Below are positions 1,271-44,922 of a stretch of 64,000 nucleotides of DNA, one piece after another. Origin of the DNA: Candidatus Levyibacteriota bacterium (GTDB taxonomy: Bacteria; Patescibacteriota; Microgenomatia; Levybacterales; GWA1-39-11); NCBI GenBank assembly GCA_050255815.1, contig JBLMVJ010000035.1, positions 10,727 through 74,726 of the forward strand, written 5' to 3'. Made by a program: the position numbers and the translations under genes. Below the pieces are notes generated by a model, which saw only the letters and a program-made list of their open reading frames with translations, had not been told where the DNA came from and searched no databases. Each line of letters begins with the position of its first letter. Position 1 is the stretch's first letter.

Positions 1271-3373
1271 ATGGGAAATAATTCAACCATTATTCTTCTT
1301 AAGAAAATATCTGTTTGGGTACTTTCTTTTGTACTATTCTTCTTCCCTCTTCTCTTTTTAGTAAACGCAACTGATCCATTCCTTTTGCCAAAACAGGTAT
1401 TCCTGGTTATGGCATCTGTAGTCCTGCTGATCCTTTGGAGCGTTATCATGGTCTTTGAAAAAAAGATTATGATCCGGACCAGTCCGTTTAATCTTCCGGC
1501 AGGACTCTTTACTTTAGCAGTACTTATTTCAGCATTCCTCTCCCGGAATATGTATGATTCACTTGCTCTTGCTATTCCGGTGTTGGCTTCTTTCATACTG
1601 TATTTTGTGGCACAAAACACCATATCAAATAAAAAGGATTTACTGTTTGTCTTATCTGCTCTTCTTTTGGGAGGAGCCGTGTCTTCCCTTATCTCAGTTT
1701 TGTACTACCTGAAGATTTACTTCCTTCCTATTCCGGCAATCCAAAGCCAGTACTTCACTACCTTTGGTTCTCCTATCCAGCACATTATTTATATAGTACC
1801 GCTTTTGATTGTTGCCGCCTACTTCCTGTCTAAAGAAGTGAGAGGGAGAAAACCTGAAGCAAACTACAATACTATATTATTTGGCGGACTTACCGGCACC
1901 CTTCTCATCTCTGCCGTCCTCTTAATAGTACAGGTAGTAACTGCACCACAAAAACCACTCTTACTGCCATACACATTTGGCTTCCAGATTGCTACCGCAG
2001 CTATTTCCCAGGACACCACACGCTTCTTAATTAGCCTGCCGTTTGGGTCCGGATTTGGCACATTCTTATCAGACTTTACCAGGTTTAAACTTCCTGATAT
2101 CAATAATGGCCAGCTTTGGGCTGCATCCTTTAGCACTTCTTCTTCTTTTGTCCTGGAGCTTTTAACCACCGTAGGAGTAGTAGGACTTTTAACCTACTTA
2201 TTTATGATTGCCAAGGTATTAAAGAATAGGACAAAAGACACCACCCCATTATTCTTTGCACTGTTAGTAGTGTTCTTAGTCTCATTCTTCCTGCCGCTTT
2301 CTATCATCTCCCTTACCCTTATCTTTATTTTAATGGCGCTGTTTACCAGCACTTTATTCCTGGACCACAGCAAAAATGTATATGATATAAGCCTTTCTAT
2401 AGTAGCTCTAAAACATGGCCTATTCTCTATAGAGGAAACGTCAGGCGCACCTAAGAAAGCTTCAGAATCTTCAAAGGTGCTTCCGATTATTGTAGCGCTG
2501 GTTATCATTCTGGTTGGCGGGTATACCGGGTATCTCTCATTCAAACTCTTGTCTGCAGACATGAAGATGGCAGACTCTTTGTCACAAAGCAAGAGGAACA
2601 ACGGCCAGGCTATTTATGACCTCCAGAGACAGGCGCTCATAGACTTCCCGTACCGCTCTGATTATTACAGGATCTTCTCCCAGATTAACCTGGCTCTTGC
2701 TAACTCTATAGCCGGTGCTGTCCCACAGGGATCTACCCCTTCCACTACGGCACAGGCAACTATTACGCAATTGCTGCAGCAAAGTATTGCAAACGGCAGG
2801 ACTGCAGTAGCCCTGGCTCCTATGAGCTCAGTAAACTGGGAAAACCTTTCCCAAATCTATAGGAGCTTAATAGGGGTAGGACAAAATGCGGGAGAATTTT
2901 CAGTGGCAACCATGAACCAGGCTATCATTTTAGATCCTTCCAACCCACTCCTGAGGGTAGAATTAGGGGGTATCTACTACCAGCTGCAGCAGTATGACGC
3001 AGCCCAAAACCAATTCCAGATTGCAATTAACCTGAAGCCTGACTTTGCAAATGCATACTACAACCTGGGCCATGCTCTTGAAGCAAAAGGAGATCTGAGA
3101 GGTGCAATAACCGCATACCAGGCAGCACAAAGCCTTACCACCAATGATAATGATAAAAAGAGGTTGGATTCTGAAATGGAAGTTATCCTGAAAAAAATTG
3201 GGACAGAGGTAAAACCGGGCACTCAGCCATCAGCAGCTGCTCCATCTGCAGACCAACCACCACTTGGAATAAGTACACCTTCAGCACAACTGCCTAGCCA
3301 AAAAGACCAGGTAAAATTACCTTCACCACCAACTGAAACTCAACCAACAGCCACACCTAAAACTACGAAATAA
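1271..3373 (+). CDS. Polytopic membrane protein with C-terminal TPR repeats and a Pro-rich tail; O-antigen ligase (Wzy_C)-like, paralog 1
   Basis: ORF 1235..3373; start moved to the ATG at 1271 downstream of a TTGACA(1224)/TAAATT promoter-like pair. About 10-12 hydrophobic helices over the first ~400 aa, then TPR-like 'AYYNLGHALEAKGDL', then a P/T/Q-rich C-terminus. The Wzy_C assignment is inferred from architecture only. Confidence 0.7.
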   Translation: MGNNSTIILLKKISVWVLSFVLFFFPLLFLVNATDPFLLPKQVFLVMASVVLLILWSVIMVFEKKIMIRTSPFNLPAGLFTLAVLISAFLSRNMYDSLALAIPVLASFILYFVAQNTISNKKDLLFVLSALLLGGAVSSLISVLYYLKIYFLPIPAIQSQYFTTFGSPIQHIIYIVPLLIVAAYFLSKEVRGRKPEANYNTILFGGLTGTLLISAVLLIVQVVTAPQKPLLLPYTFGFQIATAAISQDTTRFLISLPFGSGFGTFLSDFTRFKLPDINNGQLWAASFSTSSSFVLELLTTVGVVGLLTYLFMIAKVLKNRTKDTTPLFFALLVVFLVSFFLPLSIISLTLIFILMALFTSTLFLDHSKNVYDISLSIVALKHGLFSIEETSGAPKKASESSKVLPIIVALVIILVGGYTGYLSFKLLSADMKMADSLSQSKRNNGQAIYDLQRQALIDFPYRSDYYRIFSQINLALANSIAGAVPQGSTPSTTAQATITQLLQQSIANGRTAVALAPMSSVNWENLSQIYRSLIGVGQNAGEFSVATMNQAIILDPSNPLLRVELGGIYYQLQQYDAAQNQFQIAINLKPDFANAYYNLGHALEAKGDLRGAITAYQAAQSLTTNDNDKKRLDSEMEVILKKIGTEVKPGTQPSAAAPSADQPPLGISTPSAQLPSQKDQVKLPSPPTETQPTATPKTTK

Positions 3374-3375
3374 GT

Positions 3376-5523
3376 ATGGAAAGTAAAGATGTGCCGTCAA
3401 TAGTATCAAAGCTGCAGATAGGCGTGTTGTGCACCATGCTGGTATTATTCCCCTTAGCATTTATTCCTAACTCCACTGACTCATTTACCATGGGTAAGAG
3501 CCTAATCCTCATACTGGGGACTTCCCTTCTTATCCTGTTGTGGGCAATTGCATCTATATATAAGAAAGGCTTTGTCTATAAATCCAGCCCATTTAACCTT
3601 CCGGTTGCCCTTTTTGGCGTAGTGGTACTTATTTCCTCCCTGCTCTCCCGCAATATGTATGATTCTCTTGTTGCAGCTGTTCCCGTAGTCTTCTCTTGCG
3701 TATTGTACTTTACCATTTCTTATATGATAAGCAGCAGAAAAACACTTATTTTAGCTATTACCAGCCTTATTGCCGGCGGCGCACTGACTGCCCTTTTAAG
3801 TACCGCTTACTATCTGAAACTTTATTTCCTGCCTATTCCGGGTATTAATAACCAGTACTTTTCCCCGTTTGGGTCAGGCGTACAGGAAGCAATTTACCTG
3901 ATTGCCCTTCTCATGTTCCCGCTTTTCTCCCTATTAAGACAAACAAAGACCAGAAAGCTTACGGTTACGCAGGATTTCCTCATTGAAGCAGGTTTGGGAG
4001 GCGCACTTTTGATAGGGGTAATCTTTATTACCCTTTCCATCATTACTTCCCCAACCAAACCTATTATATTGCCATACACATATGGCTTGCAGATTGCAGC
4101 CGCTACTATTAGCCAGGATATCTCGCGCCTCTTTATCTCATTCCCATTTGGATCCGGCTTTGGCACGTTCTTAAATGACTTTGCCCGCTTCAGACTGCAG
4201 GAGCTGAACGCAAACACTACGTTTGCTACCGCCTACCCATCCTATTCATCATCTTTTGCCCTGGAGCTGATGACTACCACCGGCATCTTAGGCATCCTTT
4301 CTTACCTCTTTATAGTGTTTAAGGCCTTAAAAACCCGCATGAAAGACAGCAATCCATCTTACTTTGGCCTGGTTATCTTATTTATTGTCTCATTCTTCTT
4401 ACCGTTTGGCCTTCCAACTATTGCACTGGTCTTTATTCTTTTGGGAGTCTATTCATCATCCTTATTCCTGGCAAATGACAGGCGGGTACATAATACCAGC
4501 CTCTCACTGGTTGCCTTTGACCAGGGAATTATTTCTACAGAGGATGTGTTGAGGAATGAGCGGGTTAAGTCTGAGAGTATTATCCTGCCGGTTCTTATCA
4601 CTATCTTAGTGGTACTAATAGGAGGATTTGCTTCATTTATGATGGTACGCCTGGTAGATGCAGACACCAAAATGGTTTCCTCTTTGGTTGTACCTGCCGG
4701 TAAGAAGCTCACCATCCAGCAGCAATATGACTTGCAAAGAAATGCGGTAAATGAATTCCCTTATAAATCAGACTACCAGAGGACATTCTCCCAGCTTAAT
4801 ATGAACCTGGCTAACTCTATTGCTGCCAGCCTGCCAAAAGGCGCTACCCCATCAGCAGTTGTACAGCAAAGCGTCAACCAGCTCTTACAGCAATCAGTAA
4901 ATTCAGCCAGAAGCGCTGCTGATATAGCACCGCTTACTTCAACCAACTGGTCCAATCTGGCACAAATTTACCGGAACCTGATAGGCGTGGGCCAGGGAGC
5001 TGACCAGTTTGCCATTGCAGCCATGAACCAGGCAACACTGTTAGACCCAACCAATCCATTCTTAAGGCTGGACTACGGTGGTATTTATTACCAGTTAAGC
5101 CAGCTGGATGCAGCCCAAAACCAATTCCAGATTGCCATTAACCTGAAGCCTGACTTTGCTAATGCCTATTACAATCTGGGCCATGTGATAGAGTCCAAAG
5201 GAGACCTTTCTACCGCACTTTCTCTCTACCAGACTACCCTTTCCCTGGCCGGAAACAATCCAACAGATAAAAAGAAACTCAGTGATGAAATAGAAGCATT
5301 GAAGAAAAAGATTAATGAAACAGCAGCTACTCAACAGCAGCAGACACCGGTAAACCTGCAGACCAGCGCAGGCCAGCAGCAACCTATTGGCATTAACGCT
5401 CCTTCAGCTCAATTTCCAGCACCTAGCAGGCCGGTAAAACTTCCTCCACCTCCTGGTGCCAGCGCTTCTCCGGAACCGTCTCCTTCGGCTGCTCCCAGGC
5501 CTACGGCCACCCCCACACAATAA
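3376..5523 (+). CDS. Polytopic membrane protein with C-terminal TPR repeats; O-antigen ligase (Wzy_C)-like, paralog 2
   Basis: Starts 2 nt after the stop of the preceding gene. Collinear similarity to paralog 1 (e.g. 'NMYDSL', 'FGSGFGTFL', 'QNQFQIAINLKPDFANAYYNLGH'). Confidence 0.8.
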   Translation: MESKDVPSIVSKLQIGVLCTMLVLFPLAFIPNSTDSFTMGKSLILILGTSLLILLWAIASIYKKGFVYKSSPFNLPVALFGVVVLISSLLSRNMYDSLVAAVPVVFSCVLYFTISYMISSRKTLILAITSLIAGGALTALLSTAYYLKLYFLPIPGINNQYFSPFGSGVQEAIYLIALLMFPLFSLLRQTKTRKLTVTQDFLIEAGLGGALLIGVIFITLSIITSPTKPIILPYTYGLQIAAATISQDISRLFISFPFGSGFGTFLNDFARFRLQELNANTTFATAYPSYSSSFALELMTTTGILGILSYLFIVFKALKTRMKDSNPSYFGLVILFIVSFFLPFGLPTIALVFILLGVYSSSLFLANDRRVHNTSLSLVAFDQGIISTEDVLRNERVKSESIILPVLITILVVLIGGFASFMMVRLVDADTKMVSSLVVPAGKKLTIQQQYDLQRNAVNEFPYKSDYQRTFSQLNMNLANSIAASLPKGATPSAVVQQSVNQLLQQSVNSARSAADIAPLTSTNWSNLAQIYRNLIGVGQGADQFAIAAMNQATLLDPTNPFLRLDYGGIYYQLSQLDAAQNQFQIAINLKPDFANAYYNLGHVIESKGDLSTALSLYQTTLSLAGNNPTDKKKLSDEIEALKKKINETAATQQQQTPVNLQTSAGQQQPIGINAPSAQFPAPSRPVKLPPPPGASASPEPSPSAAPRPTATPTQ

Positions 5524-8778: not shown

Positions 8779-9450
8779 ATGAACTTTACTAAACTTTCTA
8801 AAATCGCTCTTACCGCCTCAGCTATCCTCATGGGATCCGCAAACCTTGCCTTTGCAGCAGGGTCTACTAATTGTGAAATAGTATACGGTGGCGGACAAGT
8901 TTGTACTCCTCAGATTAAATTTACTATAGATAAAAAGATCCAGAAGCCTACAAAAGGTGGAGGGTTTGTAGACAACCTGGGGGCAAATGATGACAAATTT
9001 AATCCCGGCCAAGACGTAGTCTTTCAAATCACTGTTCAAAATACCGGAGACCAGGCAGTAACATTAAACGTTGTTGACGTGCTTCCTTCTTATATAACTT
9101 TTGTTTCAGGCGGAAACTTTGATTCAGGATCTAATAAGGTTACCAACCAGGTCTCACTCAACCCGAATGATTCAAAAACCTTTACTATTGCAACCAGGGT
9201 GGTAAATGCCGGAGGTCTTCCTGCAAACCAATCAGTTACGTGTGTTACTAACGTTGCAAACGCTATGACCACTGACAACAACAACAGCGCGCAGGATACC
9301 GCACAATTCTGTATCCAGAATAATGTAACCGTACAGCCTCAGATTCCATCAAAATCTATCCCAAATACCGGTCCTGAAGCTTTAGCCTTACTTATTCTCC
9401 CTCCAGTAGGCGCAGCAGGTTTTTACTTAAGACGTAAAGCTGTCCTCTAA
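8779..9450 (+). CDS. Secreted surface protein with a C-terminal sortase sorting signal (IPNTG + hydrophobic segment + basic tail)
   Basis: N-terminal signal peptide 'MNFTKLSKIALTASAILMGSANLAFA'. C-terminus 'SIPNTGPEALALLILPPVGAAGFYLRRKAVL' is a classical LPXTG-type anchor. Confidence 0.8.
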   Translation: MNFTKLSKIALTASAILMGSANLAFAAGSTNCEIVYGGGQVCTPQIKFTIDKKIQKPTKGGGFVDNLGANDDKFNPGQDVVFQITVQNTGDQAVTLNVVDVLPSYITFVSGGNFDSGSNKVTNQVSLNPNDSKTFTIATRVVNAGGLPANQSVTCVTNVANAMTTDNNNSAQDTAQFCIQNNVTVQPQIPSKSIPNTGPEALALLILPPVGAAGFYLRRKAVL

Positions 9451-9745
9451 TAAATCTAGAACCAAAAGGTCGGAGAGAGCGGTTTTGTCTCTTCAAACAA
9501 AGCTATCCACCACTCCCAAACTTTCTAGACAATCCCAACGACCAAAAAAATAGAACCTCTCTCCCCTACCTTTTAAGGCTTTGCCTTGCGAAAGGCATTT
9601 GCTTGCCTGAAAAAGACGGGGTTAGGGCGTGTATTTTTTACACTCCCGAATGTGCGTTTAGCTCAACTGATGTATTAGCTTATGTCAGAAAGGCAAAAAC
9701 GTGTTCTTTAACAAAAGGCATGTAGAAAAATGAAGTTTCCATTGC

Positions 9746-9842
9746 ATCCACTTATGTGGATTTAATGGATGCTCCGATAATATCGGAGCAAGGTACTGTA
9801 AGTACCGGGTTTTGCGCGCTATGAGGAGAGACATGGCGCGCG
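9746..9842 (+). other. Four consecutive hairpins: ATCCAC-tta-GTGGAT, GCTCCGAT-aat-ATCGGAGC, GGTAC-tgta-GTACC, and GCGCGC...GCGCGC enclosing a GAGGAG RBS
   Basis: Inverted repeats read directly. Located at the left edge of the high-GC island. Confidence 0.5.
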
Positions 9843-9881
9843 ACATCCGGTACTTACCGAGAAAAAACGGAGAAGCAGAAC

Positions 9882-10040
9882 ATGACACAGCCCTCTACAC
9901 CCGAGACCAACACCCTCGCCCATGCGCTTGCGCAAGCTTTGGCTAACCGCCAAGGTAAAAATCCACGCAAGCTGCGGACAGCAAAGGACTTTGAGTTTCT
10001 GGGCCGCGAGGTACTGAAGGTCATAGGACAACAGGCATAG
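9882..10040 (+). CDS. Hypothetical small protein (52 aa) within the high-GC island
   Basis: ATG at 9882, stop at 10038-10040. An alternative overlapping 37-aa ORF starts at 9833, directly after a GAGGAG RBS. Which is real is unresolved. Confidence 0.25.
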   Translation: MTQPSTPETNTLAHALAQALANRQGKNPRKLRTAKDFEFLGREVLKVIGQQA

Positions 10041-10048
10041 GAGAACTC

Positions 10049-10333
10049 ATGAACCTACTTCTGGGATACGGATCACTTGCATTCACCTCTTGGTGGATCG
10101 CAGGTACTATCGTCTTTCTTCTGATGCGCAAGCACCGGAAGACCGTCCTCTGGAGAGTGGTTTACGGACCGCTCGTGTTTATCCTCGCGGACTTTATACC
10201 TGCCCTGGCGCAAGCTATGGGTATGCGTATTTGGTACGCTGAAGGAAACGTCAACATCGCCTTCTGCCGGCATGACCCGTCAGAATTCAAGGCGATCTGC
10301 AGAGACTGCGGACAAGAGGTTCACAAATCCTAG
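10049..10333 (+). CDS. Hypothetical small membrane protein (94 aa, two TM helices, C-terminal C-x10-C-x2-C)
   Basis: AGGAGA RBS 4 nt upstream of the ATG. Hydrophobic segments 'SLAFTSWWIAGTIVFLLM' and 'VVYGPLVFILADFIPAL'. Confidence 0.45.
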   Translation: MNLLLGYGSLAFTSWWIAGTIVFLLMRKHRKTVLWRVVYGPLVFILADFIPALAQAMGMRIWYAEGNVNIAFCRHDPSEFKAICRDCGQEVHKS

Positions 10334-10344
10334 GAGGACAGCGA

Positions 10345-10557
10345 TTGAAGACTAGACCGCCGCCGAAGGCACTTTCCTTGGGAAGCCCCAAAAAGGCAAG
10401 CCCAAAAAGCAAGGTAGTATCCCGCAAACGCGTAAGCGTGTTCGGAACTTGCTTTCTAATGCAGAAATGCACGGGAAGAAATTCCTGGATCCTTACCGGC
10501 CCTAGTTCATCCGAATTCTGGCTTTGCAAGCCAACAGCTCATGGAGAGATGCCATGA
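10345..10557 (+). CDS. Possible small, highly basic protein (70 aa, TTG start) in the island
   Basis: AGGAGG at 10333-10338, 6 nt before the TTG. Low-complexity, K/R/S/P-rich product; may be non-coding. Confidence 0.2.
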   Translation: MKTRPPPKALSLGSPKKASPKSKVVSRKRVSVFGTCFLMQKCTGRNSWILTGPSSSEFWLCKPTAHGEMP

Positions 10558-11990
10558 ATTGGACTGCGCTACTAGCGTGGGTGATGGACCCAGTCCGCAC
10601 CCTTGACGAACTTCGGCAGGCGCACCTTGCCCTGATCGGCCATCCCAACATGGGGAACCGCGTTCAGGTGCGTGCGCGCGTGAGGAACTACATCAATCTG
10701 ATGATCGCCACCCAAGGTGGAGGAGCTCCTGCTCCTTGGCACCCTGGCATGGGCGCTCCTGTGGTTCCTCCAACGCCAACACCTGGCCCTGCGCCCGTTC
10801 CTGGTCCTGGCCCTGCGCCCGTTCCTGGTCCTGGCCCTGCGCCCATCGTCCCGCTCGTTCCGGTTGTCGGCTATCGCCCACGCATGTGGACGTACCGCCG
10901 AATGATACGGAGAGCGCTAAACGAGGGCAACACCGCCTGGATGGATACCGAACTCACGGCATGGGGAGACCCTCCGGGAGTCGGCACTCCAGCACAGCGT
11001 GCGTACCGGCTCGAGAACTTCTCGAGGTCACGGCACGGGTGGAACCGCATCGGGCATGATATCCCGGAGCTTGTTCCGCCTGGCGCACCGGCACCGGCAC
11101 CCCGCCGACAGGTGGACTACGGTCCCCTTGGGTGGATCGCAGGTGCTCTGCTGATCGCAGCCGGCGCAGCCGTACTGTTCTTCGCCTTGATTCTGCCTCT
11201 CTCCAAGTGGGGATGGGACCAGAGCTTCGGCGACGACACGGCAGTGCAGCAGCCCGGCAACCAGCCTGGTAACCAGCCCGGCGGCAACAACGGCAACGGT
11301 AGCGGCAACGCGAACCAGCCTGGCAACAACGGCAACGGTAGCGGCAACGCGAACCAGCCCGGCAACCAGCCCGGCAATAGCGGCGTCATCAAGAACTTGG
11401 CCGACGGCCAGTTCCCCTGGACACCGCCCACACCGGGTACCGACCTTGGGAACGACAAGCAGTTCACCAGCACCATCATCGAGCAGGCCAAGCAGGGAGA
11501 CTGGATTCACAGGCTCTTCAACCCTGGCTTGTTCAACGCAGCCAATAACTACGGCGGAGCCGATTCTTGGGCTATTAGCCTGAACGTCGGTCCGAACGCT
11601 GGTGGCAGCTGGAAGGGCGAGGGAGTCTCGGGACGCTTCGTCTACCGTGCTGTGCAGAATCAGGTGGGTTGGTGCCTTGGCATCCTCACCTCGAAGACGT
11701 GGAACAACATCGACCTGAAGAGTCAACTCCTCAGCGGTTCAGACCCCAGTTTGCCGATCGGATTCAACGTCCGCATCGAACCAGGGTCTACCGTGATGGT
11801 GAAGACGAACTCAGGCGAGATCAAGTCCGGCGTCACAAGCGACATGGGTGATATCCAAGTCGTTCTGCCAGACAGCGGGCTGACCACCATCTGCACTGCG
11901 TTCAGCACTGCAGCACCTACGGGTGAAAGCCAGCTTTGGGTGGGACCTCGGGACCGCTCCAAGGACATCAACACGATCGACGCGCGGTAA
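10554..11990 (+). CDS. Hypothetical single-pass membrane protein (478 aa) with Pro-rich and QPGN/NGNGSGNA repeat linkers; high-GC
   Basis: ORF 10524..11990; likely start is the ATG at 10554, preceded by GGAGAG. Central TM helix 'GPLGWIAGALLIAAGAAVLFFALILPL'. Tandem DNA repeats at 10786-10857 and 11281-11358. Confidence 0.6.
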   Translation: MNWTALLAWVMDPVRTLDELRQAHLALIGHPNMGNRVQVRARVRNYINLMIATQGGGAPAPWHPGMGAPVVPPTPTPGPAPVPGPGPAPVPGPGPAPIVPLVPVVGYRPRMWTYRRMIRRALNEGNTAWMDTELTAWGDPPGVGTPAQRAYRLENFSRSRHGWNRIGHDIPELVPPGAPAPAPRRQVDYGPLGWIAGALLIAAGAAVLFFALILPLSKWGWDQSFGDDTAVQQPGNQPGNQPGGNNGNGSGNANQPGNNGNGSGNANQPGNQPGNSGVIKNLADGQFPWTPPTPGTDLGNDKQFTSTIIEQAKQGDWIHRLFNPGLFNAANNYGGADSWAISLNVGPNAGGSWKGEGVSGRFVYRAVQNQVGWCLGILTSKTWNNIDLKSQLLSGSDPSLPIGFNVRIEPGSTVMVKTNSGEIKSGVTSDMGDIQVVLPDSGLTTICTAFSTAAPTGESQLWVGPRDRSKDINTIDAR

Positions 11991-12345
11991 CGCACGGCGA
12001 TCCCAGACTCCTCGGAGTTGCCGATGGAGAGTACCTTAACGTCACGAGCACCGCCTAACCGCTGTGATGATCGTGGTCCGCCTGGAAAAGGAGGTTGACG
12101 ATAACCCTCTGGGTTGTCAGGATCCTGAGCGCAAGCTTGAGGATCTCCTCCACTACGGCGGACAGACTGGACAGTTTATGTGTTTCACGCTCCTTTGAGT
12201 TTTGCATTCAAAGAAAGTCGTGTCACGGCAAAAACTGGTTCCAGTCAGGGTGAGAGACTCATTTATTGAGAATTGATTGGATTTTTTCCATCAAGTCTCT
12301 TTTGAGACTTTCTCCCACCTACATGCCTTTGCGTCTCCCTCACCA

Positions 12346-12368
12346 TTATGGTGAGGGACTGATGAGTA
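12346..12368. other. Perfect hairpin TCCCTCACC-atta-GGTGAGGGA, a member of the CCCTCACC/GGTGAGGG hairpin family also found inside the 23S insertions
   Basis: 9-bp stem read directly. About 45 nt upstream of the 12411 start codon. Confidence 0.6.
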
Positions 12369-12410
12369 TTCTTTCGGAGAAATCTGAGGGAAACGAAACG
12401 CAAAAAAAAC

Positions 12411-13211
12411 ATGAGCATATTAAAATCTGTCCTTTTCTTTATCTTATTTTTGGCTGTTGCAGCCGGGGCTTTCTATGGGGTAGCTGAGCCCCAAAACACC
12501 CTTATTTCTTCCGTAGGCCCTATGCAGCTGACTGCCGGAGGTGCAGGACTCAGCCTGTTCCAGGGAAGCACCGGGCAGTATTATGATTTCTCACCATTTA
12601 AAGATACGGTAACCTTCCAGAACACTACCACTAACGCGCTGGTTACTGCCCAGGATATCCAGTCAACCGGTTATAAAACTTCCCTAAAAGTACCGTTCAT
12701 ACAGAATCTATGGGAAACCTTTCTCTTTTACACAGGAGCAGACACCCCTTCCATGAGGTTTCTGACCGGCAAAAACATCACCTACTCCTCTACCATTAAA
12801 GCCAACAAATTAATAGTCACCAGGACTATTCAGGGGGAGAAAAATCCTATTACAAAAACTGATATGACCATTACCTTTCATGCTATGGATTTTGTGTTTG
12901 ACCGGACAGGAAATTTATATAATTATGTAGACCCTGGAACACAGTCATTCTTTGAGCAGACTTATAACAAAACCTTGACACCTCAGCTGAATGACACTTC
13001 TATCACTGTTATGGGAAATATTGTTTTTATTTATAACCCTAAAATTGCCGCCGTTATGGCTATCCAAACCGTAGGGAACCAGACTATTACGGTGGACCGG
13101 AATGAGAAAGTAATCAGGATTTCTGAAACACCAAAGGTAAAAAACAATATCTACCAGGATTCTCTGCAGGTAACCGTTTTAAACACGCCAAAGGAGGCTT
13201 TTAACCTATGA
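12411..13211 (+). CDS. Hypothetical secreted or membrane-anchored protein
   Basis: N-terminal hydrophobic signal/anchor 'VLFFILFLAVAAGAFYG'. No known motif. Confidence 0.6.
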   Translation: MSILKSVLFFILFLAVAAGAFYGVAEPQNTLISSVGPMQLTAGGAGLSLFQGSTGQYYDFSPFKDTVTFQNTTTNALVTAQDIQSTGYKTSLKVPFIQNLWETFLFYTGADTPSMRFLTGKNITYSSTIKANKLIVTRTIQGEKNPITKTDMTITFHAMDFVFDRTGNLYNYVDPGTQSFFEQTYNKTLTPQLNDTSITVMGNIVFIYNPKIAAVMAIQTVGNQTITVDRNEKVIRISETPKVKNNIYQDSLQVTVLNTPKEAFNL

Positions 13212-18133: not shown

Positions 18134-18216
18134 TTGGGGTTAATTGTAGCAAATTACCACAAAAAAAGCTTCCGGGTTTAACGGAGAGGGATGTTCTCCG
18201 TAAAGCCATAAAAAAA

Positions 18217-18330
18217 CTCCTGACCCTTACGGAGAATAAGAATCCCTGCCCAAGACTCCTACTCTCCGTAACGATCAGGAGCAATGGGACATGCCCAAGA
18301 CTCCTGCTCCGATTTATCGGAGTGACTTTC
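18217..18330. repeat. Imperfect ~37-bp tandem repeats (TGCCCAAGACTCCT...CTCCG...) in the galE upstream region, including the hairpin GCTCCGATTTATCGGAG
   Basis: 'cccaagactcct' occurs twice 37 nt apart. 'ctccgtaa' recurs. Confidence 0.5.
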
Positions 18331-18447
18331 TCCCTTTAAACCGGAAGCTTCAAAAAGCCCAGTATATTGGGAAAAACGGAAATATATTTTCGTGAAAATA
18401 GTTGTAAAAACAATCTATTTTCATCAAAATAGCTTCATCAATTTTCC

Positions 18448-18476
18448 TTGACAGGAAAATATATTTTTGCTAATTT
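18448..18476 (+). promoter_or_regulatory. Sigma70-like promoter TTGACA-N17-TAATTT in a 700-bp AT-rich intergenic region
   Basis: TTGACA at 18448-18453, a 17-nt spacer, TAATTT at 18471-18476. Confidence 0.4.
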
Positions 18477-18482
18477 TATCTC

Positions 18483-18598
18483 AAAGTACTAGTCTCACCC
18501 TGCCTAGAGACTATGTACTTATAAATTTTCTAAAAGAGCATTGCTTTTCGTACTTAAGAATTTATACAACTAGTAGCGAAAGCGATGCTCTTTTTTTT
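18483..18598 (+). ncRNA. Candidate small RNA (~116 nt) with two hairpins; the second is followed by T8 (intrinsic terminator)
   Basis: Hairpin 1 at 18486-18519 (GTACTAGTCTC...GAGACTATGTAC). Hairpin 2 arms at 18535-18553 and 18574-18590 (AGAGCATTGCTTTTCG / CGAAAGCGATGCTCT), followed by TTTTTTTT at 18591-18598. No ORF. Confidence 0.35.
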
Positions 18599-19054
18599 GG
18601 TAAAGTACTGCTCTCAGAGCAAGACTACCGGAATATGTAACCCTTTTTTCAAAAGCTCCTTCAATTGCTCTTTTCCCACCTTGTCCACGGTTATCTGATA
18701 TAAATCCGTCTCAAAATTCTGCTTCTTTTTTTCTTTGGTAAACAATTTAAAGAGCTTCATAACAGATAAAGTATACCACTTCTTGTCAACTCTTTCAACC
18801 TATAGATAAACAGTCTACACCCTAGAGTTTTTAGGCATACAAAAAGGATTGTTAAATCAATGAAAAAAAATCACAGAAAAAAATGTGGATAACTTTAGGG
18901 AAAATATTTTACCTCTTGACAGAGAATGTTAACGGGTTAAAAGGTTAAGAAAATTAAAGGGTTTTAAAAAAAACGGAAAGAGTTTGGGGATAAGAAAAAT
19001 TTGAGCAAACATCCAACTCGTTAACACGTGAACACGTTAACCGGTTAATAGTTT

Positions 19055-33719: not shown

Positions 33720-34000
33720 TCAAGAGCAAAACCGGTAAGATCCGAATCTACTCGAATAGTTTGGGGTAACTTCTAGGCTACCCCATTCTTCTCGAATATT
33801 TCGAATTAACATTAACAAACACTAGCGCATTCGAATTGATTCGATTTAAATTCGAACCATTCGAGAATGATTTCTTAGAATCCACGCTATTTGGATCGAC
33901 CTATTAGTACAACTTCGCTGAAACAGTTACCTGTCTTACACGTGTTGCCTATCAACCTGATGGTCTCTCAGGGGTCTAAAAGAGATCTTATCTTAGGGTG

Positions 34001-34033
<33 letters not shown>

Positions 34034-34268
34034 CATGGAAATCTAGCTACCCAGCAGTGCACTTGTAAGTACAACTGGCACACCAGGGATTTCCTCACCC
34101 CAGTCCTCTCGTACTAGGGGCGACTCCCTTCAAATCTCAAACGGTTGTCCTGGATAGAGTCCGAACTGTCTTACGACGTTCTTAACCCAGCTCGCGTACC
34201 TTTTTAACTGGCGAACAGCCAGACGCTTGGGAGCTTCTCCACCCCCGCGCTAAGATGAGCCGACATCG

Positions 34269-34699
34269 CTGTCAATCCAATCAGTAATTAAGAAAGACTT
34301 AAAAACTTAAAACTGATGGTGATACTCTTGTTACCAAGAGCCTCTGACTATACCTTCATCCGCCAACTGGCGGAGCTAGTCGTATGATACAGATTATAAA
34401 TTTCTCTTTATGAGATGAATCCATATCTCACCCTCTCACCTATGCTGGTGAGGGGTTCAGTCGATAGGGTCCAAAAGAAATTTAAAATTCAGAAGTTAAA
34501 ATTCAGAATTAAATTCTTAATTCTGAAATCTGAATTCTTAACTCTATTTGAACCTCGGTATTACCCTCTTGTGTTCAGAAAGTAGGGTTTCACCGATTTG
34601 GACTAGTTATTTAAATTATTAGTACCTTGTTTTTTGACTCAAATACTAATAAATACAGGCAAGAGTATTACTACTCAGGCGCCCCGATATTTTCATATA
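34269..34699 (-). other. Putative group I intron (~431 nt, no ORF) in 23S domain V at the GGCACCU|CGAUGUCGGCUC junction (E. coli ~2500 region)
   Basis: Exon sequences that are contiguous in E. coli are separated here. The 5' exon ends in U and the insertion ends in G. Confidence 0.6.
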
Positions 34700-34742
34700 A
34701 GGTGCCAAACCGCATCGTCGCTGTGGACGCTTGGATGCGATC

Positions 34743-34775
<33 letters not shown>

Positions 34776-35229
34776 AAGCTACGTCCCAACCACTAAGGAA
34801 CGCAGGATCACTAACACCTGCTTTCGCACCTGCTCGACTTGTAGGTCTCGCAGTCAAGCTGGCTTGTGCGTTTGCACAATACGCTCCGATTTCCGTCCGG
34901 AGTTAGCCAACCTTTGTACGCCTCCGTTGCACTTTAGGAGGCAACCTCCCCAGTTAAACTGCCCACCAGACACTGTCTTTTAGCCGTATTTTTATGCGGC
35001 ATTAAAGTAATGCTCACTCATCTTAAAGAGAGGTATTTCATTGATGACCGAAGTCTCCCTCCTATACTAAACAGTTAAAATAAGCTTGCAAATGTCAAGC
35101 TACAGTAAAGCTCCCGGGGTCTTTTTGTCCTAGGACAACCAGGCCGCGTCTTCACAGCCATCTCAATTTCGCCGTGTAAATGTTCAAGACAGTTACTCAG
35201 TCGTTCTACCTTTCGTGCGGGTCGGAACT

Positions 35230-35548
35230 CCATTGTTTTAATGTTCCAACATGGAACCTCACAGTCGCCTGTGAGATCGGACTATATCTTTCCCTTACCA
35301 AATTGGTGAGGGATCTAGCGTCTAGTCTCTGAGGGTTTTCCGATAAATCGGAATCTTCCCTGCTGATTGGCTCCACCAAGCAGATTTTTACTCTTACGAG
35401 TACTGTTGGATACTGAGCTGTTCCAGCAAATAGCTAGATTTTACACTCATTTAGGTTAACGATTGTGTTCTTACGTGACTGTTTTGCTTGTTCCTGATGT
35501 GTATCCCGATTAGATCGGGACTCGGGCAAGTTGATTTGACCCAAACCA
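35230..35548 (-). other. Putative group I intron (~319 nt, no ORF) in 23S at GUCGGGU|AGUUCCGACC (E. coli ~1951 site)
   Basis: Exons flanking the insertion are contiguous in E. coli. The 5' exon ends in U and the insertion ends in G. Confidence 0.6.
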
Positions 35549-37359
35549 ACCCGACAAGGAACTTCGCTACCATAGAACAGTTATAGTTACTGCTGCCGTT
35601 CACCGGAGCTTTAGAAAGCGGCTCCACCTTGCGGTTTCACCACCCACTATTGACTTACCGGCACTGGGCAGGTGTCAGCCCCTATACGTTACCTTTCGGT
35701 TTTGCAGGGACCTGTGTTTTAGATAAACAGTCGCTAAGTAATCTTTTGCTTAACCTGGATGTTACTCCAGGCAGGGCATCTCCCATAGGTTACGCCCAGC
35801 TTTTGTTGCCGAGTTCCTTGAACATTTGTCTCACGGTCGCCTTAGTCTACTCGACCAATCCACCTGTGTCGGTTATGCGGTACGGCAAAATATAGCACTC
35901 CTCACGAATCTTTTCCTGAAGACTGAAACTTACGATCCTCACCCTACTTTCTTGCGATTTCAGATTTGCATTCGCCACTTAATTAAACACTTTGACGGAT
36001 TTGCCCATCAAAACTATCTTATGGCTTGGACCCTGTTTACAGGGCGATCCTTTCCACTCTTGTCCATCCTTGAGTAATAACGCACTATACTCTGTAGCAG
36101 AATATTAACTGCTTGTCCATCCGGCTACCCCGCGCTTTATGACGGGCCACCGTTAGGAGCCGACTAACGCTGCGCTGACTTACATTGCGCAGCAAACCTT
36201 GGATTTTCGGCGGACGCCGTTCTCAGGCGTCATTCGCTACTCATGCCGGCATTCTCACTTGTAAACGCTCCACCATACCTTACAGTACAGCTTCGCTGCA
36301 TTTACGACGCTCCCCTACCACTTGCTCCGATAAATCGGAGTCAAATCTCCATCGTCGGTATTAAGCTTAATCCTCGATCATTTCCGGCGCCATTCTCCAA
36401 TGTCGACTAGTGAGCTGTTACGCTTTCTTTAAAGGATGGCTGCTTCTGAGCCAACCTCCTAGCTGTCTATGGAAAATGACTTCCTTATCAACTTAGCTTA
36501 AATTTAGAGACCTTAGATGGGAGTCTGGGCTGTTTCCCTTTAGACCCACGAGCTTAGCCCCGCAAGTCTGACTCTCTATTAAGTTTTTACGGTATTCGGA
36601 GTTTGATTGATCCTGAAAAGTTGCCTCTCCAGAGACCATTCAGTGCTCTACCCCCGTAAAAACATACAAAAGGCTATACCAAAATATATTTCGGGGAGAA
36701 CCAGCTATCTCCAGGTTCGTTTAGTATGTCACCCCTTACCACAAGTCGTCTCAGATCATTGCTGCGATCACGAGTTCGGGCCTTCCTCATCCTTTCGAAC
36801 AAGTTCACCCTGCTCATGGTAAGCTCACCTGGTTTCGGGTCTTTTGCAATGCGCATTTAGGTATCCCAGTTAGAGATCGCTTTCACTATGCCTCCCCCCT
36901 CACCTTTCCAACGAAAATTCCAACCTTTGTTTTAAATCGAGCTTGTTTCGATAATATTTCAAAGTGGTAATCCTCATTAGAATGGTGAGGGGTTAGACTG
37001 CGCAATACAAAAACTCACCGGCTCATTCTTCAATAGGCACGACGTTATACCCTTGCGGGCACTTCGTCTGCTTGTTAGCTAATAGTTTCAGTAACTCTTT
37101 CATTCCCCTCCCGGGGTGCTTTTCACCTTTCCCTCGCGGTACTAGTTCACTATCGGTAGATGTTGATATTTAGCTTTGGAGCGTGGTCGCCCCGGCTTCC
37201 CACAGGGTTTAATCGTACCCCATGGTACTCAGGAACAGGCAAGAAGTGAAAATCATTTCAAATACGGGACTATCACCCTCTTTGGTCTCTTTTTCCAAAA
37301 CGTTCTTCTATGATTTCCATTTGTGACTTCTTTTGCATTTAAGCAAGCCGTCCTACAAC

Positions 37360-37660
37360 CCCCCTCACCTTTTTATCACTAACCTTTTTAAAAGTTCTTG
37401 CCAAGCTTTTGCGCGCTTCTTAAGCGCCTGCTCTCTTCTAAAAGCTAATTTATAAGAAGTATATGCTTCATAATAAATAAGCTCCCATGGCAAAAACTTT
37501 TTAGTATATATAGACTTTCCTTTATTATGGTCCGTAAATCGAGTTTTAAGATCTTTTGTTGAACCAATATAAAACTGGTCGAACTTTACACTCTTAAGAA
37601 TATACGTGTAGAACATAAGTCTATTATAGTTATTTAAGTTAGGAACAAAAAGGTGAGGGG
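37360..37660 (-). mobile_element. Hairpin-bounded intervening sequence in 23S domain I carrying a GIY-YIG nuclease ORF; ~15-bp terminal inverted repeats CCCCCTCACCTTTTT / AAAAAGGTGAGGGG
   Basis: Replaces the variable region after AGCGAACG (E. coli ~270-350). Flanking rRNA blocks identified on both sides. Confidence 0.6.
37365..37616 (-). CDS. Small GIY-YIG nuclease superfamily protein (COG2827-like, 83 aa) encoded inside the 23S rRNA gene
   Basis: 'YTYILKS...FYIGSTKDLKTRFTDHNKGK...PWELIYYEAY...RREQALKK' matches the small URI-domain endonuclease family. Same strand as the rRNA. Confidence 0.75.
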   Translation of the reverse strand: MFYTYILKSVKFDQFYIGSTKDLKTRFTDHNKGKSIYTKKFLPWELIYYEAYTSYKLAFRREQALKKRAKAWQELLKRLVIKR

Positions 37661-38222
37661 TTTGAGCTGTTCCGCGTTCGCTCGCCGCTACTGACGGAAT
37701 CTCTGTGATTTCTTTTCCTCGGACTACTTAGATGTTTCAGTTGGTCCGGTATCCCGCCGACTACTAATATATTAATCTTGCGACTAATAACTTCATAGCA
37801 GGCTCCCAGTTAAACTGGGGGGTTTCCCCATTCGGACACCACCGGATCATAATGTCTTCGGCCATTCCCCGGTGATTTTCGCGAGCCAGATGCGTCCTTC
37901 TTCGGTCAACACCTCCTAGGCATCCACTATTAGCATGAATCAAATAGCGTAGATTCTAAAAAACCAATTCATTAAAAACCATGCCTCGGCTTGAAACATG
38001 GAAAATCCGCCACCCGGCGGATTTTTTTAATCCTCCGTCCCGATTAGATCGGGACTTCGGCCTAGTTGTTTGTTTGTAATTCTTCCAATTATTAATGAGC
38101 AAAACGCTTTTTGCGTTGCCCTCGGATGTAATCCGAGGCCATATCTCTCCTGTACTCGTTTCTCGCCGGGAAGTATATTGCCCTTCCACCAGCGAGGAAC
38201 CAATACAAGAAAACTAAAAAAG

Positions 38223-44884: not shown

Positions 44885-44922
44885 AGGCGCGCAGTTCCGA
44901 TTTATCGGAACGAGCACCGCAA
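44883..44922. repeat. TTAGGCGCGCAGT - GTTCCGATTTATCGGAAC hairpin - CGAGCACCGCAA framework, second copy of the motif at 33495-33531
   Basis: Arms identical. The central hairpin differs (GTCCCAAAGGGGGAC at 33507). Confidence 0.6.

Follow-up and report, generated by a model that had tools for sequence, protein, structure and literature searches.

A conserved hairpin cluster as a candidate RNA leader of a GC-rich surface-protein cassette in Candidatus Levyibacteriota

Introduction

Stabilising elements in the 5' untranslated region (UTR) of bacterial messenger RNAs have been described in several forms. Agaisse and Lereclus reportedly argued in 1996, going by the title of their paper, that a Shine-Dalgarno (SD) sequence in the 5' UTR, named STAB-SD, is a determinant of mRNA stability. 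In cryIIIA of Bacillus thuringiensis, this element is an SD-like sequence for which a stabilising role based on the 30S subunit has been proposed. Furthermore, stem-loops at the 5' end protect transcripts against RNase cleavage (reviewed in PMC7509114). In the examples ompA, aprE, ermC, vacA and recA, stable hairpins near the 5' end are combined with an accessible ribosome-binding site (RBS) downstream, and the number and sequence of the hairpins are free while the 5' end stays paired. Here, we analyse a cluster of three hairpins (H1, H2 and H3, positions 9738-9857) in a 64-kb stretch of DNA, hereafter the window, from a metagenome-assembled genome of Candidatus Levyibacteriota, a bacterium of the candidate phyla radiation (CPR; NCBI names). 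The hairpins lie at the left end of a GC-rich group of genes, which we call the cassette and which includes the gene of a predicted surface protein, X.

A first-pass annotation of the window, made from its letters, had described four back-to-back hairpins with an embedded RBS at the left edge of an island, and had proposed a recombination or attachment site, an origin-like element or a translationally regulated leader that sequesters the RBS. We find that the hairpins are real and far beyond chance. They probably form a transcribed, cis-acting RNA leader of the mRNA of the surface-protein cassette, with the long helix H3 as its core. As in the STAB-SD of cryIIIA, there is an SD-like sequence: the H3 loop AGGAGAGA is invariant in the six loci where H3 was found and is followed by no conserved start codon, four of the six having none. 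In contrast to the STAB-SD, the motif is here displayed on the apical loop of a 26-bp helix, all 8 nt of it are invariant, the host otherwise shows no SD use, and the element is known from sequence alone. The likeness to the 5' stem-loop stabilisers lies in the stable hairpins that precede an accessible RBS and in the freedom of their arrangement, as the leaders of related loci differ in hairpin number and sequence. The difference is that here three to five stacked hairpins fill a leader of 120-240 nt, that one of them has a conserved loop, and that the 5' end is a predicted one. We therefore regard H3 as a new RNA motif, absent from Rfam and narrowly distributed, that appears to be a variation on known leader elements.

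Results and discussion

Three hairpins fold with exceptional stability

All three hairpins are described on the + strand. H1 (9738-9769) has 14-nt arms (9738-9751 / 9756-9769, 86% complementary) around the loop TTAT, and the repeat ATCCAC/GTGGAT of the first-pass annotation is its core. H2 (9770-9790) has perfect 10-nt arms (9770-9779 / 9781-9790) with one base between them; it corresponds to the repeat GCTCCGAT/ATCGGAGC and forms the hairpin TGCTCCGAT-AAT-ATCGGAGCA. H3 (9798-9857) has 26-nt arms (9798-9823 / 9832-9857, 85% complementary) that enclose the octaloop AGGAGAGA at 9824-9831, and it comprises the noted GCGCGC...GCGCGC with TACCGG/CCGGTA outside it. Thus, all the inverted repeats that had been listed exist where they were placed, but they amount to three independent hairpins rather than four. 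The remaining repeat, GGTAC/GTACC (extended GGTACT/AGTACC, 9792-9797 / 9801-9806), shares bases with the outer stem of H3, competes with it and is unused in the minimum-energy fold.

The first-pass annotation had called the density of structure atypical and had suggested RNA folding and an Rfam search as checks. The RNA fold of 9730-9885 reaches -74.4 kcal/mol on the + strand (z = -10.6), and none of 200 shuffled sequences was as stable; the - strand reaches -62.2 kcal/mol (z = -9.0). In a GC-corrected sliding scan of the 64 kb, the most stable 120-nt segment on the + strand starts at 9741, ahead of any segment of ribosomal RNA. The atypical density is confirmed by these folds. The Rfam search matched no family: Rfam 15 gave no gathering-score match for the hairpins when the whole window was scanned and nothing at E <= 10 in 9400-12500, and a scan of the short stretch 9690-9890 returned chance-level matches only (E 0.7-10, 9-17 bits). 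Within the 64-kb window, the hairpin sequences do not recur elsewhere.

We considered the hairpins as the terminator of the upstream DUF11 gene and rejected this, as there is no U tract, the distance from the stop codon is ~290 nt and a separate terminator-like hairpin lies at 9582-9597. A terminator scan reports none of H1-H3, and H3 is followed by CGAGAAAAAACGG, which is A-rich and not a U-run; the same holds in L081, L087 and L099.

H3 is conserved as a helix across related loci

To compare the window with its relatives, we collected about twenty related loci by exact-protein look-ups and one metagenome scan; most of the relatives' contigs are short. Six loci contain H3: the window locus (W), L082 (truncated by the contig end), L081, L087 (duplicated as L101), L099 and L100. 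The six H3 sequences align without gaps as 26 + 8 + 26 nt. In this alignment, 94.4% of the cells of the helix are paired, and 13 of the 26 pairs have changed on both sides. Among 500 shuffles, the observed value was reached by none for four of five pairing measures and by one for the fifth. As a control, we slid the partner columns by 1 to 3 positions, whereupon the paired fraction dropped to 26-53%. The outer half-stem is formed by four unrelated sequences, which are GUAAGUACCGG/CCGGUACUUAC, GUAGAUGCCAG/CUGGCAUCUAC, GGGGCCC/GGGGUCC and CGUGCC/GGCACG. The stem base is the most variable part of H3, whereas the loop and the upper stem are conserved: invariant are the upper stem GCGCG, the loop AGGAGAGA and the two pairs that close it. 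A weak or mismatched zone is conserved at pairs 12-16. Absence of such conservation in homologous loci had been named at first pass as what would speak against the structures, and the comparison with related genomes shows the opposite, namely an H3 conserved with compensatory changes. We take H3 to be the functional core of the leader, a helix that drifts in sequence but keeps its pairing.

The conserved structure differs between the strands. On the + strand, the cells that are not Watson-Crick pairs comprise 19 G.U against 2 A.C. A covariance model built from the H3 alignment (R1) reaches 75-83 bits on the + strand but 30-48 bits on the opposite one. It has a single hit in each locus and no second one in the window, where the sequence GAGGAGAGA likewise occurs just once. 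From the G.U asymmetry and the difference in strand scores, we conclude that H3 functions in single-stranded form, in the same sense as the genes, and RNA would be the simplest reading of the asymmetry.

A long helix in a UTR also invites comparison with processing sites. Substrates of RNase III are helices of about 26 bp, and those of the T7 type have internal loops. If H3 were such a site, a cut of its ~26-bp helix by this double-strand-specific endonuclease would detach the hairpins upstream and yield a matured 5' end, as in the early mRNAs of phage T7, or it would start decay, as in the rnc and pnp leaders of Escherichia coli; the loop would be secondary. What H3 has in common with these T7, rnc and pnp sites is a long and irregular helix, about two and a half turns in extent and weak in its centre, that is located in a UTR near the start of a gene. 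The helix is 26 bp in all six loci without any insertion or deletion, and the analogue in L083, a helix at the position of H3 with a different loop, also has 26-nt arms. With 26 pairs, 94% of them paired, H3 is longer than the continuous helix of at least about 20 bp that is taken as a requirement; its weak zone at pairs 12-16 resembles the T7-type internal loops; and the other end of the cassette RNA would itself be subject to programmed processing by a predicted hammerhead ribozyme, described below. Processing by RNase III would, however, leave the invariance of the 8 loop bases and of the closing pairs unexplained, since RNase III needs no particular loop, and it could coexist with a leader function rather than replace it. 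No rnc gene came to light in the window, although none was searched for. As the whole explanation of H3, we consider it fairly unlikely that RNase III processing is at work.

The SD-like sequence in the H3 loop does not mark a gene start

In the window and in L082, the sequence GAGGAG (9823-9828) is followed by AGAC and ATG (9833-9835), with GAGGAG mostly in the loop of H3 and ATG in its stem. This arrangement had been read as a consensus RBS that the hairpin sequesters. In such a reading, H3 would hide the RBS and the start codon (9823-9835) of a short first open reading frame (ORF) or leader peptide and would be opened for regulation. Besides the GAGGAG-AGAC-ATG itself, a 37-codon ORF that follows it speaks for this, and the gene caller used the ATG in L082. 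Yet the ATG is replaced in four of the six H3 loci, by ACA in L081 and by ACG in L087, L099 and L100, and the two varying bases of 9833-9835 belong to the compensated stem pairs 22/39 and 24/37. Moreover, relative to the ORF of the 52-aa protein that begins the cassette, the ATG is in frame in L082 and out by one base (+1) in the window, and the spacing of 4 nt is short for initiation. As the ATG is absent from four of six loci and its frame shifts between the other two, we conclude that it is not a start codon. The SD-like bases are exposed rather than sequestered, because they are located in the loop. Sequestration is thus very improbable, and what had been taken for an embedded RBS is present as a sequence but represents an invariant loop motif instead of a gene start.

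The real SD lies outside H3. It is GGAGAAG (9869-9875), carried by an unpaired, A-rich linker (9858-9881, + strand) that leads to the start codon of the first ORF at 9882. In each of the six loci, this real start codon follows 23-31 nt after H3 has ended. Together with the compensatory conservation and the sense-strand asymmetry, this constant distance bears out the earlier idea of a leader in kind, though not in its mechanism.

The loop resembles the SD sites of the cassette. All cassette ORFs (starts 9882, 10049 and 10554) have a strong SD (GGAGAAG, AGGAGAA and GGAGAG, respectively), and AGGAGAGA is of the same sequence type as these sites (GGAGAG). Host genes differ in this respect: GGAG, GAGG or AGGA occurs at -18 to -5 in 7 of 64 long ORFs, which is the background rate of 11%, and Rho, the M23 peptidase, the DUF11 gene and a 266-aa gene, among others, are visibly without an SD. 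The H3 loop therefore seems to mimic the cassette's own type of RBS in a genome that otherwise makes no use of SD sequences.

The invariance of the loop might also reflect recognition by a protein. The leader could be the operator of a trans-acting RNA-binding repressor or activator, CsrA-like or specific to the lineage, that controls translation of the first ORF. Targets of CsrA such as hag and glgC typically have a two-site architecture. As in these CsrA/RsmA targets, a GGA stands in the hairpin loop and a second GGA at the SD tens of nt downstream: every H3 locus has the GGA of AGGAGAGA and another in the SD 40-50 nt further on, and a fully invariant loop argues for sequence-specific recognition. 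The loop differs, however, from RUACARGGAUGU, the consensus obtained by systematic evolution of ligands by exponential enrichment, and no csrA was seen in the window; a regular-expression scan for a CsrA signature in the six-frame translation of the 64 kb found none, which is a weak negative, as the gene may lie elsewhere in the genome. Nor is the 52-aa protein a universal partner, since L081 has H3 but a different first ORF. We regard control by a CsrA-like protein as distinctly unlikely. The RNase III and CsrA-like explanations and that of a stabilising leader are not mutually exclusive.

H1 and H2 vary among lineages

In contrast to H3, the hairpins preceding it are not shared by all relatives. 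H1 was found only in the window and is absent from L087, L099 and L100; at its position, L081 has three or four hairpins of unrelated sequence, whereas L087 has a single small hairpin before H3. Both L099 (GCUCCGA-AUUAAA-UCGGAGC) and L100 (ACUCCGA-AUCAAA-UCGGAGU) have H2 in the corresponding position, and in L100 its outer pair is compensated from G-C to A-U. Nonetheless, the leaders of relatives are strongly structured (z = -7.0 in L099, -8.7 in L081 and -7.6 in L087). What is conserved thus appears to be a leader that is base-paired throughout and has a long helix at its end, with H1 and H2 as presumably accessory, lineage-variable hairpins.

The core of H2 is also a recurrent short palindrome, YTCCGATTTATCGGAR, of the TCCGA..TCGGA family. 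The window contains 5 copies of it against 0.12 expected: 9773-9787 (+ strand, in H2), 18307-18322, 44895-44910, 35338-35353 (- strand) and 36325-36340 (- strand). In unrelated loci, its frequency is about 1 per 430 kb. Two of the copies lie inside the 23S rRNA region, one of them in a group I intron, and the other resembles a native domain II hairpin of the E. coli 23S rRNA. A second palindrome, TCCCGATCTAATCGGGA, occurs twice in the window (35505-35519 and 38039-38053). The palindrome YTCCGATTTATCGGAR could be a mobile mini-palindrome or a protein-binding hairpin.

A promoter-like block, an inverted repeat and a hammerhead motif mark the borders of the cassette

Upstream of the hairpins, the invariant block GTTCTTTAACA (9703-9713, + strand) contains a probable -10 hexamer, TTTAAC, at 9707-9712. 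The block is conserved in W, L087, L083, L099, L100 and L089 and has a variant form in L081. In L088, a consensus TTGACA is found exactly 17 nt upstream of the same TTTAAC, which there directly precedes the box described next. The block is probably the -10 region of the cassette, with transcription starting in or next to this box.

The box, AAAGGCATGTAG (9714-9725, + strand), is the left arm of an inverted repeat that bounds the cassette. All of its 12 positions are complementary to the right arm, CTACATGCCTTT (12319-12330, + strand), which ends 5 nt before the predicted cleavage site of the hammerhead. Corresponding arms are found in L087 (AGGCATGTAGGA / TCCTACATGCCT, 3053-3064 / 5129-5140, 12/12 complementary), L083 (AAGCATACAGG / CCTGTATGCTT, about 957-967 / 3220-3230, 11/11), L089 (GGCATACGGGAATTT / AAATTCCCGTATGCC, 1163-1177 / 2369-2383, 15/15) and L088 (AAGGCATACTTAGGG / CCCTAAGTATGCCTT, 3167-3181 / 4792-4806, 15/15). 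The repeat is perfect over 11-15 nt. Its core, GGCAT/ATGCC, is conserved, whereas the extension of this core varies and shows covariation in five lineages.

Pairing between 5' and 3' UTRs is known from hbs of Bacillus subtilis (PMC5737220) and icaR of Staphylococcus aureus (PMC3868564). Similarly, 9714-9725 is complementary to 12319-12330 and the two co-vary; here, however, the predicted hammerhead cut is only 5 nt downstream of the 3' partner, whereby pairing would join processed ends, and G.U pairs are absent. This absence counts against a role in RNA, as does the energy of the long-range duplex between the left arm and the right flank, which is not significant against shuffles; because of the latter, it is the covariation that argues for pairing of the RNA. 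The bounding repeat could represent a 5'/3' RNA panhandle or an inverted repeat at the DNA level, that is, an inversion or cassette site.

The right border carries a type III hammerhead motif (12328-12404, + strand), which matches the full RF00008 model with 29.2 bits (E = 9e-5) and a predicted cleavage after C12335. L087 has another full-length match (5140-5200, 31.4 bits), and the same motif, co-varying in all three stems, is present in L083 (3228-3292) and L096 (952-1012). In L086 (about 1757-1850), stems I and III were read by eye and stem II is long and irregular. The motif agrees with RF00008 in the (G/U)U(C/U) at the cleavage site, in CUGAUGA and GAAA, in the type III topology and in its co-varying stems. 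It differs in its scores, which at 29-31 bits stay below the Rfam gathering score of 48.5 even though the full core and three stems are present in type III order, and further in the long, irregular stem II of the window and L086, in having no obvious loop-loop contact and in its position. The position is unusual, as the motif stands directly before a start codon at the border between the GC-rich cassette and sequence of host composition: 2-7 nt separate its end from the start codon (12411 in the window) of the gene that follows, which is host-like in composition. A 3.1-kb Rfam scan had missed the hammerhead, which was found only in scans of short stretches; the same kind of scan found no second ribozyme in the left flank. 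With its full core and its covariation across five lineages, the motif is likely to be a real ribozyme. Given the start deduced above and the predicted hammerhead cleavage, the cassette RNA would extend from one arm of the repeat to a cut 5 nt past the other.

The bounding repeat raises the question of whether the hairpins act at the level of DNA, as a cruciform or a single strand, and form part of a recombination, inversion or cassette-exchange site. Several observations are consistent with such a site. The repeat is a perfect one that flanks a segment, as in invertons, and it co-varies in five lineages with Watson-Crick pairs only; the shift in base composition and SD usage coincides with the borders; and the gene content between the borders varies among relatives. 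Furthermore, other bacteria commonly have invertons in the vicinity of surface-protein genes (PMC11892184, PMC11602134). Against this stands, first of all, the G.U asymmetry of H3 on the sense strand (19 to 2), which is expected for RNA and not for sites in duplex DNA, and because of which a purely DNA-level function of the hairpins is unlikely. In addition, no target-site duplication is visible by eye at the borders, no recombinase was found among the 20 ORFs scanned in the window or in the related loci, and the assemblies that include both borders (W, L087, L083, L089 and L088) show one orientation only. Sequence collections of mobile elements gave nothing either: H2, H3 and a 65-nt element of the cassette were not found in viral contigs, where the X family is likewise absent, and blastn searches with the island yielded no match in phages and low-complexity matches only in plasmids. 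H3 is comparable to the attC sites of integrons as a ~60-nt imperfect palindrome at a cassette border with structure conserved over sequence. In contrast to attC, there are no R''/R' cores (RYYYAAC / GTTRRRY) in 9798-9857, no integrase was found in the scan of 20 ORFs, and H3 lies at the 5' end of the cassette on the sense strand of the genes, with the loop and upper stem conserved rather than the stem base. We consider a DNA-level function of the hairpins improbable. An attachment or recombination site, as proposed at first pass, is thus not supported for the hairpins themselves; for the separate 12-nt box at 9714-9725, a role at the DNA level is possible. For the proposed origin-like element we see no support, since replication genes are absent, the locus belongs to the chromosome and is kept in synteny, and searches of the phage and plasmid collections yielded nothing.

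How the leader may work

Our preferred explanation, a cis-acting leader of the cassette mRNA, can be put as a sequence of steps. Transcription would start at or next to 9714-9725, just downstream of the block with the -10-like TTTAAC. The first ~145 nt of the RNA would fold almost completely into H1, H2 and H3, and only the short A-rich linker with the true SD of the first ORF (9882) would stay open. H1 and H2 would keep the 5' end paired, and such stacked 5' hairpins may protect the transcript from decay that depends on the 5' end. The exposed SD-like loop, about 45-50 nt upstream of the start codon, may dock the 30S subunit, or another factor specific to the loop, without initiation, much like a stabiliser of the STAB-SD type or a site of ribosome capture. 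The leader would thereby act in cis and post-transcriptionally, on mRNA stability, processing or ribosome recruitment. While we hold the leader as such to be probable, the idea that the H3 loop works as an SD mimic for docking and stabilisation is a tentative one.

Several points weigh against this account. We infer that the region is transcribed, where its transcript starts, what the loop pairs with or binds, and how stability or translation is affected. The start is taken from a single consensus -35 in a distant relative, L088; the window itself has no good -35, and a simple promoter scan reported nothing near the block. The complementarity between the loop and the anti-SD is assumed, as the 3' end of the 16S rRNA lies outside the window, and the host apparently does without SD-dependent initiation for its own genes, which would make docking of the 30S subunit special or doubtful. 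L083 keeps a 26-bp helix with another loop, and the ancestral function may therefore belong to the helix and not to the SD mimic. The invariance of the loop covers all 8 bases, even the 3' AGA that anti-SD pairing does not need, and this would point at least as much to a protein or another RNA as the partner. Lastly, H3 is carried by only four independent lineages, and the statistics of covariation come from a small and related set.

The cassette genes keep an anomalous composition

The segment of about 9800-12200 stands out by a GC content of 52-68%, against ~43% for the window. The cassette starts on the + strand with the ORF of the 52-aa protein (9882-10040), which has no functional assignment, is conserved in alignment and has the homologues P0059-P0062. 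The second ORF (10049-10333, + strand, SD AGGAGAA) encodes 94 aa and is predicted to be membrane-associated. X (10554-11990, + strand) encodes the predicted membrane-anchored surface protein; its GC content is 62%, its GC content at third codon positions (GC3) is 71%, and a longer form with a TTG start begins at 10524. Neither Pfam nor PHROGs gave a match for the 52-aa, 94-aa and X ORFs. X contains proline-rich and Gly/Asn-rich linkers and a conserved C-terminal domain of ~180 aa that ends in ...INTIDAR. This domain has some 45 relatives in a representative library of 1.84 billion proteins (HMMER), and its structural model is a beta-sandwich (predicted local distance difference test score of 93) with weak fold matches to carbohydrate-binding modules.

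X occupies one and the same syntenic position in every relative, and the related loci agree in the order DUF11 - (small ORFs) - X - 190-270-aa protein - 550-618-aa membrane protein; in L087, the correspondence with the window extends to each gene from Rho onwards. Across these loci, the GC3 of X is 0.46-0.82 compared to 0.21-0.46 in its neighbours. The exception is L094, where the single neighbour measured has a higher GC3 than X (0.46 against 0.51). The island of the first-pass annotation is thus a real GC-rich segment but no recent insertion, since all relatives examined have it as a GC-rich cassette in synteny. In this conserved cassette, the anomalous composition is itself conserved and does not fade towards that of the host. 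We accordingly rejected a recent insertion with an empty site in relatives, as X is present in every one of them, and we also rejected the possibility that the GC-rich segment stems from a chimeric assembly or from contamination, as the same flanks and the same synteny recur in independent assemblies.

The neighbours comprise a DUF11/CLIPPER surface protein, Rho, an M23 peptidase, glycosyltransferases and an epimerase, and the locus looks like a cell-envelope or cell-surface locus. The DUF11/CLIPPER protein (8779-9450) has a C-terminus reminiscent of a sortase-type sorting signal, with IPNTG, then a hydrophobic stretch and finally RRK.

The searches for relatives differed in their yield. A scan of a genome collection with the 613-aa neighbour found no relatives, and Rho proved too conserved to pick out the close ones. 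A word-indexed protein search with X returned only X itself, probably because low-complexity words dominated, whereas the full HMMER search recovered the family. Looking up P0015 for the left border of the L096/L086 type led to contigs that end inside the cassette.

Further non-coding elements

The cassette contains other conserved non-coding stretches. A 65-nt element, AAGCAAGGTAGTATCCCG...TTCGGAACTTGCTT (10403-10465, + strand), lies ~90 nt upstream of the start codon of X. It is near-identical in W, L081 (2262-2325) and L082 (538-605), where the proteins are only ~50% identical. Its form is ...GUAUCCCG-[hairpin or short loop]-UUCGGAA..., and it has no match in Rfam. L086 (about 378-410) and L102 (about 345-385) have short forms in which the outer stem co-varies; the automatic alignment of long and short forms is poor. 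An overlapping 70-aa ORF (10345-10557) is probably not a gene; in L081, the corresponding frame is interrupted by stops, as read by eye.

The 3' UTR of X carries a conserved multi-stem element at 12075-12163 (+ strand), with the arrangement GGTCCGCC...GGAGG..two variable hairpins..CCTCC...GGCGGAC. Its closing stem is GGUCCGCC/GGCGGAC, followed by GGAGG/CCUCC. L087 (about 4880-4970) keeps this frame, its inner hairpins differ in sequence, and Rfam gave no match. An anti-SD-like UCUCCUCC in the element shows complementarity to the H3 loop.

Outside the cassette, the stretch after the DUF11 gene is conserved as AAAGGTCGGAGAGAGCGGTTTTGTCTCTTC ... TCTCTCTCCCCTACCTTTT in the window (9451-9600), L087 (2809-2935) and L099 (5653-5775); it offers a potential GGAGAGAG/CUCUCUCC pairing and then the terminator-like hairpin at 9582-9597. 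The large intergenic region 18134-18620 is very strongly structured on the - strand (z about -5.7 at 18161-18261) and has no credible Rfam match; it contains the direct repeat GCCCAAGACTCCT twice and one H2-like palindrome. The 23S rRNA gene (33883-37949, - strand) is 4067 nt long compared to a model length of 2925 and includes the group I intron at 35258-35526. Because of the length in excess of this intron, it must carry at least one further insertion. The gene is flanked by a 5S rRNA and a tRNA-Ala, and the Rfam scan found no 16S gene in the window.

Conclusion

Taken alone, the hairpins would be a useful but not surprising cis-acting leader, whereas the locus that they lead is more unusual. 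Across many diverged relatives, the cassette keeps a GC3 of 0.5-0.8 beside neighbours of 0.2-0.5. In addition, it combines SD sequences with the bounding repeat and the hammerhead motif, and it carries at least two further conserved non-coding elements (10403-10465 and 12075-12163). A wider interpretation, which we put forward as speculative and rather unlikely, is that the hairpin leader is one end of an undescribed RNA-defined or exchangeable gene cassette of the CPR. The cassette would then be a GC-rich, SD-dependent unit bounded by an inverted repeat and kept at one chromosomal site in an AT-rich host that makes no use of SD sequences. Its transcript would start at one arm of the repeat, the hammerhead would cut it 5 nt past the other, and the two ends could pair as a panhandle or become ligated. 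The invariant SD-mimic loop would recruit ribosomes to an mRNA of foreign style, and the difference in composition and signals would reflect recurrent horizontal replacement or a dedicated regime of expression. The locus offers a testable system for the expression of surface proteins in the CPR and for their possible exchange. It bears on the role of SD-like sequences where initiation is SD-independent, and on that of hammerheads in bacterial operons.

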